A stretch of DNA of 64,000 nucleotides from Gammaproteobacteria bacterium (GCA_028285945.1 JAPYNE010000033.1:27964-91963); one strand, 5' to 3'; counted from the stretch's first letter, positions 48,251 to 55,809 are shown. Notes: a model not told the origin generated them from the letters alone. Numbers and translations are program-made.

Positions 48251-49171
48251 ATGAAAGCATCATTGCGTATTTCAGGTATTTGCTTGACCCTTATCGGGGC
48301 GGCGGGTCTGGCGGCTTGCCAAACCACAGGCGGCGTTTCCTCGCCGTCCGGCGGCCCTCCGGTTTCCACGCCCTCCTCTGGCGGAAGCTCGGGATCCTCC
48401 AGCGGTTCGATGGGTTCAATGGGCGGTTCGTCCGGCGGTTCGATGGGTTCAATGGGCGGCTCACGGGAATCTATGGGTTCAATGGGCGGCTCACGGGAAT
48501 CTATGGGTTCAATGGGCGGCTCACGGGAATCTATGGGTGGTTCCATAGGTTCCTCCGGCGGCTCGATGGGATCATCGGGCGGCGGACGAGGCTCACCTAG
48601 CGGTTCTGCCGGTCAGCCGAGCGGGTCTATCGGCACAGGCGGCGGTCAGCGCGGCGGGAGCGGAGATGGCGACCTCGAAGGCATTTTGCGTGAATCCATG
48701 GAGGGCCACGACCGCGAAATGGCTCGTGAACGCGGCGCCATGGCGGCATCCGGGCAGGGAGCAGCCAGCGGTTCCAGCGGCATGGGCGGCATGATGGGCG
48801 GAGCTGGCGGCTCAGGCGGGCCGATGGTCACGATTCCGAATGCTTCCGGCGGCGGAATCGGCGGCGCCGGGCAGGATTCCGGCAACGCCCGGTCGGACGG
48901 AAAGTCGGCGGGTGACGGCGGTAGCGAGGCCGGCGGGGGCGAAAGCGGCGGAGGAGGAACGGGTACGCAGGAGGGCGATGGCAGAAGCGGCGCGGCGGAT
49001 GCCCGTCCGGAGCCGAAGGTCGAGATTCCCGAGGATATCGCCAAAGTCGCCGGCAGCGAAGACCAGGTGGCGCGGCAGATCCGCGAAGCGGCGGAGCAGG
49101 AAGAGGATCCGCGCATACGCGAAGCGTTGTGGGAGGAGTACCGCAAGCACATGGGGCTGAAAGCAAAGTGA
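48251..49171 (+). CDS. Gly/Ser-rich repetitive lipoprotein
   Basis: Lipobox GLAAC. GGSRESMGSM repeats are encoded by a perfect 30-bp tandem. Charged helical C-terminus. Alternative GTG start at 48233. Confidence 0.7.
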   Translation: MKASLRISGICLTLIGAAGLAACQTTGGVSSPSGGPPVSTPSSGGSSGSSSGSMGSMGGSSGGSMGSMGGSRESMGSMGGSRESMGSMGGSRESMGGSIGSSGGSMGSSGGGRGSPSGSAGQPSGSIGTGGGQRGGSGDGDLEGILRESMEGHDREMARERGAMAASGQGAASGSSGMGGMMGGAGGSGGPMVTIPNASGGGIGGAGQDSGNARSDGKSAGDGGSEAGGGESGGGGTGTQEGDGRSGAADARPEPKVEIPEDIAKVAGSEDQVARQIREAAEQEEDPRIREALWEEYRKHMGLKAK

Positions 49172-50373
49172 AAAAAACCAACGCATTTTTCGGCATGCTG
49201 GCCGGCGCGGCCATGCTGGCGGCCTGCACCTCCTCGCGCGAGGTTCAGTATATCGAGGTGCCTCTGGCGCGGGCGGAAACCGACATCGCGCAGGAGCAAC
49301 TGCTGAGCGTGGGCATTCTGGTTTTTGATGAGGGCCTGCCTGAGGATGCCGGCGAGCAGGAGCTCAACAACCGGTTCATCTTCCCGGAAATCCGCCGCGC
49401 GGAAGCGCGCTACATGCCCTATCACCTCAAGAACACGCTGGAATCCACCGGATTCTGGGGCGCCGTCAGCGTGCTGCCCGATTTCAGTCCCGTGACGGAC
49501 ATTCATATCGCCGCGCGCATCGACCATTCCGACGGCTACAGCGCGAAACTGCGCGTGGGAGCTTGGGATGCCTCCGGGCGCGAGTGGTTCGAGAAAAAGT
49601 ATGAGATGGAAGTGGCCGAACAGGCTTATGTTCGCAACGCCGGCCCCGGCCAGGATCCGTATCAGAAAATCTACAACGAGATCGCGAATGATCTTCTGCA
49701 GGCCCGCGCTCAACTCAGTCATCGCGAGTTGCAGCGGATTCGCGACGTGAGCGATTTGCGCTACGGCCTCAGCCTGGTTCCGCAGGCATTCGAGGGTTAT
49801 CTGGAGCAGGAAGGAGACGGGCGCTACCAAGTCAAGCGCCTGCCAGCGTCCGGCGAACCCATGGTCGCCCGGATGCGCGAGGTCCGGGAGCGGGAATACT
49901 CGCTGATCGATGCCGTCAATGAGCACTACGCCAACCTTTACTACGGTTTGGATCAGCCCTATGCGGACTGGCGGCGCATGGCCCGCGAAGGCCGCATGAG
50001 CTACGAGGAAATGCGCCGGTCGGCCAATACGCGCATGCTGCTGGGGGTGCTCAGCATACTGGGCGCCGTTGCCTACGAGGCCGGCGGCGGCGACAACATG
50101 GGCGTAACGAGCACTGCCATTCAGGGCGGCTTTATGGGAATCCAGAGCAGCATGGGCCGCCGCGAGGAAGCCCGGTTGCACGCTGAGGCGCTGCGCGAGG
50201 TGGGAGAGTCGTTCGAATCCGAAGCCGAGCCGGTGGTGGTGGAGCTGGAAGGCCAGACCCGGCGGCTGACCGGGTCCGCCGAGGAGCGGTTTCGTGAATG
50301 GCGCCGTCTTTTGCAGGAAATCTACAGCCGCGAGACCGGCTCCTTGGACATGCCGGGCCTTGGGGAGCAATAG
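49168..50373 (+). CDS. Lipoprotein of unknown function
   Basis: VKKTNAFFGMLAGAAMLAAC lipobox. The GTG overlaps the previous stop (GTGA). ~400 aa with no recognisable family. Confidence 0.7.
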   Translation: MKKTNAFFGMLAGAAMLAACTSSREVQYIEVPLARAETDIAQEQLLSVGILVFDEGLPEDAGEQELNNRFIFPEIRRAEARYMPYHLKNTLESTGFWGAVSVLPDFSPVTDIHIAARIDHSDGYSAKLRVGAWDASGREWFEKKYEMEVAEQAYVRNAGPGQDPYQKIYNEIANDLLQARAQLSHRELQRIRDVSDLRYGLSLVPQAFEGYLEQEGDGRYQVKRLPASGEPMVARMREVREREYSLIDAVNEHYANLYYGLDQPYADWRRMAREGRMSYEEMRRSANTRMLLGVLSILGAVAYEAGGGDNMGVTSTAIQGGFMGIQSSMGRREEARLHAEALREVGESFESEAEPVVVELEGQTRRLTGSAEERFREWRRLLQEIYSRETGSLDMPGLGEQ

Positions 50374-55399: not shown

Positions 55400-55809
55400 G
55401 GAAATTATCCGGCGTCATCGCCGTTGCCAGCCTCGGCATCAGCCTCACCTGGGCTGCCGGCCAGGTGGACCGCTGGCTCGGGGTCCAGCCGCGGGACAAC
55501 TCCGGCGCGGAGGCGGAGGCGCCCGGAACCGGCGCGCCGCCCGGAACCGAAGCCTCTCCGGGGAATGGGGGCATCGACCCTGCGGGCAACGATAGCCTCT
55601 CGTCCTCCGGCGACGCCGCCCTTGGCGCCGAGGCTGCGGGCGCCGATGCGCCCGGTCCGCAACCGGAACTGTCCGCCGATGCCGCCTCCATCGAGGAGGA
55701 CTTGGCGCGCATTGAGGAAGCGCTGGAGAACGAGGAAGCGCTGGAGGAATTCACTCCGTCCGAGCCGCTTTCAGCGGACAAACCCGAACCCTGGCCAACT
55801 GATATCTGA
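55396..55809 (+). CDS. Small secreted acidic low-complexity protein
   Basis: Signal peptide MRKLSGVIAVASLGISLTWA. ATGA overlap with the preceding gene. Acidic, Ala/Gly/Pro/Glu-rich. Confidence 0.6.
   Translation: MRKLSGVIAVASLGISLTWAAGQVDRWLGVQPRDNSGAEAEAPGTGAPPGTEASPGNGGIDPAGNDSLSSSGDAALGAEAAGADAPGPQPELSADAASIEEDLARIEEALENEEALEEFTPSEPLSADKPEPWPTDI

Follow-up and report, generated by a model that had tools for sequence, protein, structure and literature searches.

Five genes in a gammaproteobacterial contig encode the periplasm-facing side of an uncharacterised envelope system driven by a motor, with threonine phosphorylation as a proposed accessory layer

Proton-driven motors of the 5:2 type are few (Mot, Ton, Tol, Agl, GldLM and Zorya), and each of them opened a field. 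Motors in which a TolQ-like channel is combined with 'TPH-vWA' proteins have been predicted, with their function unknown (Mol Biol Evol 2025, PMC12204202). What was known in 2025 was the TolQ-like/vWA pair alone, without partners or function. Here we describe partners of such a pair in a stretch of 64,000 nucleotides from a Gammaproteobacteria bacterium (GCA_028285945.1 JAPYNE010000033.1:27964-91963), which we call the window. Five genes at 48251-55809 encode two lipoproteins, a Hanks kinase, a protein with FHA-like, PEGA and formylglycine-generating-enzyme-like (FGE-like) domains, which we call FPF, and a small secreted protein. A first-pass annotation of this DNA took them for an envelope-spanning threonine-phosphorylation module that senses an envelope cue and controls a separate stator/vWA operon at 59640-63501. 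Our analysis shows them instead as one half, the periplasm-facing one, of an envelope system that is driven by a motor and has not been characterised; threonine phosphorylation belongs to it as an accessory layer.

The published motors share several features with those described here. In both, a TolQ homologue is encoded without a TolR/ExbD gene, and the vWA proteins carry a TolR-like transpore helix with a proton-binding Asp. The vWA genes usually form a heterologous pair (40 loci in our set), and the taxa include Proteobacteria and Verrucomicrobia. The lineage of the window differs in having one vWA gene and no such pair. Identity with the Idiomarina-seeded family of PMC12204202 was judged by the published description, not by sequence comparison. 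That paper makes no mention of a kinase, PEGA, a sulfatase/FGE domain or Hsp70. Our search of the literature returned no description of the system apart from the TolQ-like/vWA pair, and no paper combining PEGA, FGE-sulfatase and kinase. What is new, then, is a conserved parts list for the pair: two to four lipoproteins, two periplasm-spanning scaffolds, a probable dedicated peptide ligand and a cytoplasmic Hsp70-like adaptor.

One gene cluster, divided in the lineage of the window

One genome per species was scanned with an alignment of FPF, which gave 80 loci, and all proteins of the window were mapped onto them; 65 of the 80 hold an FPF orthologue. Co-occurrence of the five genes with the operon at 59640-63501, which had been proposed as a check, is strongly positive (55/65 FPF loci). 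In each of these 55 a TolQ-like gene starts 190-900 bp past FPF on the same strand. In most such loci FHA and vWA genes come next, and ahead of FPF lie the two lipoprotein genes and the gene of the kinase-family protein. The gene order is lipoprotein 1, lipoprotein 2, TPR protein, FPF, small open reading frame (ORF), TolQ-like, FHA protein, vWA. The carriers belong to many orders of Gammaproteobacteria and to Desulfobacterota, Rhodospirillaceae, Thermoanaerobaculales, Saprospiraceae and Opitutales.

Because the genes are contiguous on one strand in 55 of the 65 loci, and in several phyla, the 'module' and the 'stator/vWA operon' are one system: 48251-55809 and 60179-63501 are the two halves of a conserved envelope-spanning cluster. 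In the lineage of the window the halves are separated by an inserted block at 55862-60182 that holds ppx (-), ppk (-) and a sixA-like gene (+). The block is found only in the window and in its close relatives L001-L003, which are Candidatus Foliamicus-like metagenome-assembled genomes (MAGs). The SixA-like gene, likewise present only there, matches TIGR00249 (3.3e-12, below cut-off), and its stop overlaps the TolQ-like start (ATGA at 60179).

The two gene sets do not make up a sensor and a separate target operon, and the sensing of an envelope cue stays conjectural. One could still imagine that the five genes are a self-contained envelope-stress sensor of the TagQRST-PpkA kind, sending a Thr-phosphorylation signal to a stator/vWA operon that is separate from it. 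The domain vocabulary (lipoproteins, an FGE-family periplasmic domain, Hanks kinase, FHA, vWA) does fit the pathway of type VI secretion systems (T6SS), and the catalytic residues of the kinase are intact. Gene order at the 55 loci speaks against this idea. So does the fact that in most clusters all of these genes are kept while the kinase domain is missing and the FHA domain has decayed, from which it follows that the upstream genes have a function independent of phosphorylation. Furthermore, neither a TagS/T-like transporter nor a PP2C phosphatase was found among the conserved flanking gene clusters or by inspection of three kinase-bearing loci, a search that did not include a hidden Markov model (HMM) scan of every flank. 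We consider a self-contained sensor unlikely.

The cluster is larger in many other genomes. A second vWA (TPH-vWA) paralogue lies 3 nt 3' of the first in 40 loci; two more lipoproteins of ~225 aa, with no Pfam match, follow in 31, and an M48 peptidase in 18. On the upstream side, 23 loci have a secreted TPR protein of ~468 aa. None of these extra genes is in the window, where we looked for another vWA gene, for both additional lipoproteins and for the TPR protein. Past the vWA gene, beyond the end of the window, the genes of the source contig (L081) are unrelated: they encode an FG-GAP/ASPIC protein (-), two redoxin-domain proteins and an IS1595 transposase, and there are N6/N4-methyltransferase-HNH genes as well. 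The region looks like a boundary with mobile DNA, which may explain the missing second vWA gene. The system is widespread and unannotated. Cultured carriers exist, among them Microbulbifer halophilus, M. marinus and Spectribacter acetivorans, which all have kinase-less variants.

The five co-oriented genes were found as ORFs where the first-pass annotation had placed them (Table 1). Both overlaps it had noted can be read directly in the sequence: GTGA at 49168 joins the stop of lipoprotein 1 to the start of lipoprotein 2, and ATGA at 55396 joins the stop of FPF to the start of the small gene. A scan for promoters and terminators gave counts no higher than in shuffled sequence. Just 5' of lipoprotein 1 there is a 64-aa ORF with one hydrophobic helix (47975-48169, +), which is conserved at 57-59% and only in L001-L003. 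The 220-nt gap between the kinase gene and FPF is occupied by a palindromic repeat element of ~130 nt (52811-52941; fold -106.8 kcal/mol, z -8.2), whose 33-nt core is found twice more in the window, at 28194-28226 (-) and 63575-63607 (+). It looks like an intergenic element of the repetitive extragenic palindrome or miniature inverted-repeat transposable element (REP/MITE) type, and it lies outside the envelope system.

Table 1. Genes of the two halves of the cluster, the gene next to the second half, and the parts of FPF (positions in the window)
Feature	Position	Strand	Basis
Lipoprotein 1	48251-49171	+	ORF; LAAC lipobox
Lipoprotein 2	49168-50373	+	ORF, GTG start; LAAC lipobox
Hanks kinase/TPR/PEGA-like bitopic inner-membrane protein	50419-52758	+	Pfam, transmembrane helix, motifs
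FPF (FHA-PEGA-FGE protein)	52979-55399	+	Pfam, profile, AlphaFold2, Foldseek
FPF parts: FHA-like domain; T114-R-P-P; transmembrane helix	aa 1-110 (nt 52979-53308); Thr codon 53318-53320; ~aa 148-176	+	profile, model
FPF parts: five PEGA-type beta-sandwiches; FGE-like domain	~aa 173-516; aa 537-798 (nt 54587-55372)	+	Pfam, family HMM
Small secreted protein	55396-55809	+	signal peptide, conserved C-terminal 20-mer
SixA-like histidine-phosphatase-fold gene	59640-60182	+	TIGR00249 below cut-off
TolQ/ExbB/MotA-like proton-channel subunit	60179-60976	+	PF01618
Protein with Hsp70-like nucleotide-binding domain and FHA domain	60993-62414 (FHA from nt 62115)	+	
Protein with TolR/ExbD-like transpore helix, coiled coil and vWA domain	62404-63501	+	weak VWA matches, motifs

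Parts of the system and their predicted places in the envelope

Every variant of the cluster has the same core. It consists of a TolQ-like proton channel and a TolR-like 'axle' with a periplasmic vWA head; of two bitopic inner-membrane proteins crossing the periplasm, one TPR/PEGA-like and the other FPF, which has a PEGA stalk and a cysteine-less FGE-like head; and of two outer-membrane lipoproteins, one of them TolB-N/LptE-like, together with a small secreted protein. Predicted topology places the kinase, the FHA-like domain, T114 of FPF and the Hsp70-FHA protein in the cytoplasm. The TPR/PEGA-like region, PEGA stalk, FGE-like head, vWA head, lipoproteins and small protein are placed in the periplasm or at the outer membrane. 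We infer that the TolQ-like/vWA proton motor works with the two periplasm-spanning scaffolds and the outer-membrane lipoproteins.

The TolQ-like protein (PF01618, 3.9e-14) is the best-conserved product of the cluster outside the window's own lineage, with 50-67% identity in nearly all distant loci and 39-94% overall. Neither in the window nor in the other loci does the cluster hold a TolR/ExbD-like ORF. The vWA protein itself has an N-terminal transpore helix like that of TolR/ExbD (nt 62440-62496) with an invariant Asp, which reads MSFLDIISCGFGAVVLFF in the window, then a coiled coil and a predicted periplasmic vWA domain with an intact metal-ion-dependent adhesion site (DASAS...TDG). Across 53 orthologues there is conservation of FLD.m.CGfGAv, D.SaS and itDGLPT, with FLD invariant. 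Between these two genes lies the gene for the Hsp70-FHA protein. Its profile matches the nucleotide-binding domains of Ssz1 and Hsp70 (~1e-6) and FHA structures (~5e-8), and its C-terminal FHA domain matches PF00498 (4.9e-9). As the first-pass annotation had stated, it is the only other FHA protein in the window; no further FHA domain was found there.

The homologues of FPF are full-length and of conserved length. The five PEGA repeats described earlier are present (PF08308, 4.9e-41), three of them strong and two divergent: three stretches pass in Pfam, and the family HMM gives strong units at 312-380, 382-452 and 452-516 and weak ones at ~176-245 and 246-310. The C-terminal domain is of the FGE type, as had been said (FGE-sulfatase, PF03781, 3.9e-38; FGE structures in PDB, ~2e-14). 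Whether it keeps the catalytic Cys pair was a question left by the first reading, and both Cys are absent. The stretch RGSSWL-HGT-LRELRW of FPF aligns with RGGSYLCHDSYCNRYR of the Streptomyces FGE, where C-x4-C after GGS[YW] is the copper-binding pair, and none of 19 FPF homologues has a Cys in the catalytic columns. For this reason we rejected the possibility that FPF is a true FGE enzyme.

FPF occurs in two forms, a long one with the FHA-like domain and a short one with a cytoplasmic tail of 30-60 aa. In short forms (e.g. L009, L016, L020 and L029, which are kinase-less) the tail has a recurring [IV]-x-P-x-x-[FY]-x-P just before the transmembrane helix. This motif may be a docking site that stands in place of the FHA-like domain.

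The second scaffold is the kinase protein. Its kinase domain (aa 1-290) is followed by a single transmembrane helix (aa 319-337, nt 51373-51429) and then by weak Pfam TPR matches, so the transmembrane helix and the periplasmic helical region of the first-pass annotation are both there, the latter being TPR-like. The earlier reading made no mention of the C-terminus, where an 80-aa domain (from nt 52516) is strongly conserved at every locus and resembles PEGA in an hhalign comparison (probability 61%, E 8e-5). Most orthologues are 470-540 aa long and have no kinase domain; the transmembrane helix, the TPR region and the C-terminal domain alone are conserved.

Both members of the lipoprotein pair have an L-A-A-C lipobox, in agreement with the first reading. 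In lipoprotein 1 the lipobox is followed by a low-complexity tether rich in Gly and Ser and by a conserved C-terminal helix, EDQVARQIREAAEQEEDPRIREALWEEYRKHMG. Within the tether a 30-nt tandem repeat (48410-48538; 4.2 copies, 91% matches) encodes MGSMGGSRES units. Tether length varies widely among orthologues, whose total lengths are 188-451 aa. Their last 40 aa are conserved, with the motif DDD[IV]VARQLREAA.E.DP.LREKLW.EYRKYK kept in ~40 of them. The AlphaFold2 (AF2) model of lipoprotein 2 has a TolB-N/LptE-like alpha/beta domain and then long helical hairpins; Foldseek matches it to TolB and LptE (E 1.6e-3 to 1e-2, probability ~1, low TM-scores). We found 645 homologues of lipoprotein 2. Its family comprises 1554 clusters at 50% identity, 541 of them at E <=1e-30, all named 'hypothetical', and it has no Pfam model, making it a candidate new domain family. 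Three scans with Pfam and NCBIfam gave no match for either lipoprotein or the small protein, nor for the additional conserved proteins lipoA and lipoB.

The small protein has a signal peptide, an acidic, disordered low-complexity middle and a conserved C-terminal 20-mer, EEFTPSEPLSADKPEPWPTDI (nt 55744-55806). In other loci a small ORF with this conserved C-terminus invariably fills the space from FPF to the TolQ-like gene. The consensus F-x-P-[ST]-E-x-[IV]-S-x-D-x-x-V-x-F-P-[VT]-D-I-COOH is conserved in position too, in >45 loci. The invariant C-terminal peptide is probably a ligand for one of the periplasmic heads; a TPR/EEVD-like mode of binding is one conceivable option. Lipoprotein 1 and the small protein share a plan, a disordered tether with a short conserved motif at its end, which suggests that both act as docking ligands.

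Phosphorylation as a proposed accessory layer, and other explanations

The Hanks kinase named in the first-pass annotation is well supported (Pkinase, PF00069, 9.3e-37, above cut-off). It has the Gly loop LGAGGSSEVW, K53 in LAVKLL, HGDLKPQN, and DFG in TDFGAA, and the HGD noted earlier in place of HRD is indeed there, so the kinase is non-RD. This change is confined to the window, L001-L003 and L015; the remaining kinase orthologues have HRD. At the APE position the aligned family has SPQQ, with one member, L063, having SPEQ. The Arg of HRD and the Glu of APE are class features and are not required for catalysis. K53, D143, N148 and D161 are kept in all kinase loci but L015, as is DFG with the further exceptions of L007 and L053. 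At the level of sequence, then, the kinase of the window does not look like a pseudokinase, and in the variant of the window the TPR/PEGA-like protein would bear an active non-RD Hanks kinase at its cytoplasmic end.

A degenerate FHA domain at the N-terminus of FPF had been proposed, and the fold is present while the Arg of GR and SxxH are absent. Pfam gives no FHA match in FPF at E <=0.01. A profile of the N-terminal family compared with PDB has significant matches that are almost all FHA (EmbR 5.7e-5, Rv1747 1e-4, EssC, Ki-67, GarA 1e-3). The AF2 model of aa 1-110 has a predicted local distance difference test score (pLDDT) >90, and its top Foldseek matches are FHA domains in 50 of 50 cases; profile and model thus both support the 11-stranded beta-sandwich of an FHA fold. 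G26 alone is invariant; at the place of the Arg there is S/A/T/G/E, SxxH is missing, and NG is kept in part. The partner FHA domain, that of the Hsp70-like protein, keeps canonical motifs in the window's variant: G394, S413, R414, H416 and N439 do not vary within its subfamily. The clade of the window has S/T/A for the Arg after G394, and GR is kept in L022, L052, L053 and L063.

Presence of the kinase varies together with these features. A kinase domain occurs in 13 tabulated loci (L022 shows kinase motifs but was left out of the table), and FPF is long in 13/13. Among loci with a short FPF and a complete upstream gene, 0 of 36-37 have a kinase domain. The canonical motifs of the partner FHA (GVSRxHC...GTxxNG) are kept in 6/7 scorable kinase-bearing loci versus 1/33 kinase-less ones. 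The FHA-like domain of FPF is followed directly by T-x-[P/A]-x, whose Thr is T114 in the window. All scorable loci in which the kinase is intact have this Thr in one and the same alignment column. The kinase-less long forms L012, L013, L024, L032, L060 and P0052 lack it, the upstream gene of the last having no Pkinase match. Fisher p values for the co-variation of kinase and FHA features are 5e-7 and 1e-5. In a neighbour-joining tree built from the shared part of FPF, the kinase-bearing loci make up a single broad clade containing a few nested losses, and because of its few independent events we have downgraded the raw Fisher tests.

We also note L015 (Deltaproteobacteria MAG MB1D_Bin_1), in which the phospho-module has decayed: the Lys of VAIK is Arg, DFG is DFR, the partner FHA has no SRxH and FPF has no Thr-x-Pro-Pro.

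Threonine phosphorylation was the core of the module in the first-pass annotation. This part of it did not survive, as most clusters are kinase-less, with a short FPF tail and a decayed FHA. What the kinase and FHA parts supply is an optional regulatory add-on, which the window's lineage has and most others do not. Lineages with and without this checkpoint provide a natural on/off comparison.

How might the add-on work? We can suggest the following. The periplasmic state of the complex would set the activity of the kinase. The kinase would then phosphorylate a cytoplasmic Thr, for which T114 of FPF is the best candidate, and the FHA domain of the Hsp70-like protein would read the phospho-Thr mark. 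Reading of the mark might couple or uncouple the TolQ-like/vWA motor and the periplasmic scaffold. Taken as a whole, a proton-driven trans-envelope machine with a threonine-phosphorylation checkpoint, whose phosphorylation steps we infer, seems to us about evenly balanced between right and wrong.

A more detailed speculation can be made, which we offer as a tentative possibility and would not be surprised to see fail. The cluster could encode a proton-driven trans-envelope machine of a class not described before, made from 8 genes here and from as many as 13 elsewhere. In it a TolQ-like pentamer would turn the vWA-headed axle. The inner-membrane PEGA stalk would present the cysteine-less FGE domain, which would bind F-x-P-S-E...FPVDI of the small protein as a pseudo-substrate (compare C-x-P-S-R of sulfatases), and the TolB-N-like lipoprotein would be the anchor in the outer membrane. 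In one branch the kinase, Thr-x-Pro-Pro and an FHA reader would form a checkpoint of assembly or activity.

Several points weigh against the machine with a phosphorylation checkpoint. The FHA-like domain of FPF, judged by its residues, cannot bind phosphothreonine in the canonical way. For the partner FHA, which in the window's clade has no canonical Arg, phosphothreonine binding is not assured. The kinase-less L062 retains the Thr of T-x-[P/A]-x. The co-variation rests on few independent events, given the single clade in the tree, and its Fisher p values overstate it. No phosphatase gene is conserved beside the kinase-bearing clusters, as far as flanking clusters and the three loci go. In the window's lineage there is a single vWA gene as opposed to the pair in 40 other loci. 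The likeness of the lipoprotein 2 model to TolB-N/LptE is weak. Finally, the functions of the members are deduced from domains and gene order.

Some of these points would suit a different explanation, in which the kinase and FHA domains are docking modules independent of phosphorylation; the cytoplasmic ends of the two bitopic proteins and the Hsp70-like protein would just bind one another, and no signal would pass. FPF has an FHA without any phosphothreonine-binding residue, the partner FHA of the window's clade has no canonical Arg, the kinase has HGD and has SPQQ replacing APE, no phosphatase was seen in the conserved flanks or the three loci inspected, and L015 shows that the module can decay. 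But mere docking would leave unexplained why K53, D143, N148 and D161 are kept in all but L015 (and DFG too, except in L007 and L053), and why S413, R414, H416 and N439 of the partner FHA are invariant. Retention of the Thr in T-x-[P/A]-x also tracks the intact kinase: in L015, with its K->R change and decayed partner FHA, this Thr is missing, the exception being kinase-less L062. We give a purely docking role only a small chance.

Apart from the checkpoint, the machine itself could be thought of as a secretion or gliding apparatus of the type IX secretion system (T9SS) kind, with a GldL/M-like motor and a GldK/PorK-like FGE-family ring protein. GldK/PorK is the best NCBIfam match of the FGE-like domain (1.8e-27), PorK structures are among the PDB sequence matches (5e-12), and a predicted 5:2-type motor is encoded alongside. 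However, the GldK model (TIGR03525, cut-off 350) scores 96.7, FPF is no lipoprotein but a bitopic protein of the inner membrane with a cytoplasmic N-terminus and an internal transmembrane helix, and the TolQ-like protein is a member of PF01618, not GldL. No further secretion-type parts were seen in conserved flanking ORF clusters, where GldM/N, SprA and PorV were not searched for specifically. A T9SS-type apparatus is therefore quite improbable. Less probable still is an anti-phage defence of the Zorya kind, in which a MotA-like motor senses envelope perturbation and a kinase is added: although a MotA-like/stator pair is present and the kinase matches the PADLOC models PD-T4-6 (3.8e-54) and mad6, we rejected it because these are generic kinase-domain matches, the other cluster proteins match no defence model beyond weak coiled-coil matches of the vWA protein, there is no nuclease or other effector, the components are mostly periplasmic or lipoproteins, and kinase-less variants predominate.

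Comparison with known systems

Tol-Pal (TolQRA-TolB-Pal) resembles the machine proposed here in having a TolQ-family channel, a force-transducing periplasmic arm, outer-membrane lipoproteins and a TolB-N-like partner, which here would be lipoprotein 2 by a weak structural match. It differs in that TolR, TolA, the TolB beta-propeller and a Pal/OmpA domain are all missing here. A vWA head replaces TolA domain III, and the kinase/FHA layer is added.

With GldLM/PorLM and GldK/PorK of T9SS the system shares a 5:2-type proton motor, predicted for it here, and a non-catalytic FGE-family protein near the outer membrane. Here the motor belongs to another family, FPF is no lipoprotein and falls far below the GldK cut-off, and there is no translocon. 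The parallel between the two combinations of 5:2 motor and non-catalytic FGE-family protein is at most a functional one.

In the Sulfolobus archaellum network, ArnA (FHA), ArnB (vWA) and the ArnC kinase form a triad controlling a motility-type machine, a likeness to the present system, and ArnA and ArnB form a cytoplasmic complex (PMC12852372). In our case the vWA domain is predicted to lie in the periplasm and the FHA protein in the cytoplasm, and hence they cannot pair as ArnA and ArnB do. Agl-Glt gliding of Myxococcus (PMC9946355) likewise has a TolQ/R-type motor and a vWA envelope protein together with numerous lipoproteins and periplasmic proteins. Its vWA protein, the adhesin CglB, is a lipoprotein of the outer membrane and not a stator axle, and no Glt homologues were seen here.

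The likeness noted in the first-pass annotation was to the threonine-phosphorylation pathway of T6SS, and it goes further than was claimed, since it extends to TagR (COG1262) and to the periplasmic vWA of PpkA. COG1262 is the FGE/SUMF1 family, and we count TagR as a member of that family because of its COG1262 entry. A literature search returned nothing on TagR with formylglycine or sulfatase. The entry of TagR as COG1262 is given in a review (PMC13584744), and the periplasmic vWA domain of PpkA in PMC3224232.

The absence of T6SS genes also agrees with the first reading; none was seen among conserved flanking ORF clusters or the inspected ORFs of three loci. The FHA protein scores 28.7 bits against TagH/Fha1 (TIGR03354), with a cut-off of 120. 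An orphan T6SS pathway was rejected, as the partners are TolQ-like and vWA proteins and T6SS genes are missing.

TagQRST-PpkA-PppA-Fha1 of the Pseudomonas aeruginosa H1-T6SS and the present system have in common one or more outer-membrane lipoproteins, a periplasmic FGE/SUMF1-family domain, a bitopic Hanks kinase, a cytoplasmic FHA reader and a periplasmic vWA domain. These parts are arranged differently. The vWA domain is on the stator axle protein here and on the kinase (PpkA) there. The FGE-like domain here is anchored in the inner membrane via the PEGA stalk, and the output is a TolQ-like motor. No counterpart of the TagS/T ABC-type pair or of PP2C was seen in the conserved flanks or the three loci inspected, and the kinase is dispensable in most lineages. 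A set of domains comprising FGE-like, vWA, Hanks kinase, FHA and lipoprotein also regulates the T6SS of Pseudomonas, which points to a reusable kit for signalling from envelope to cytoplasm.

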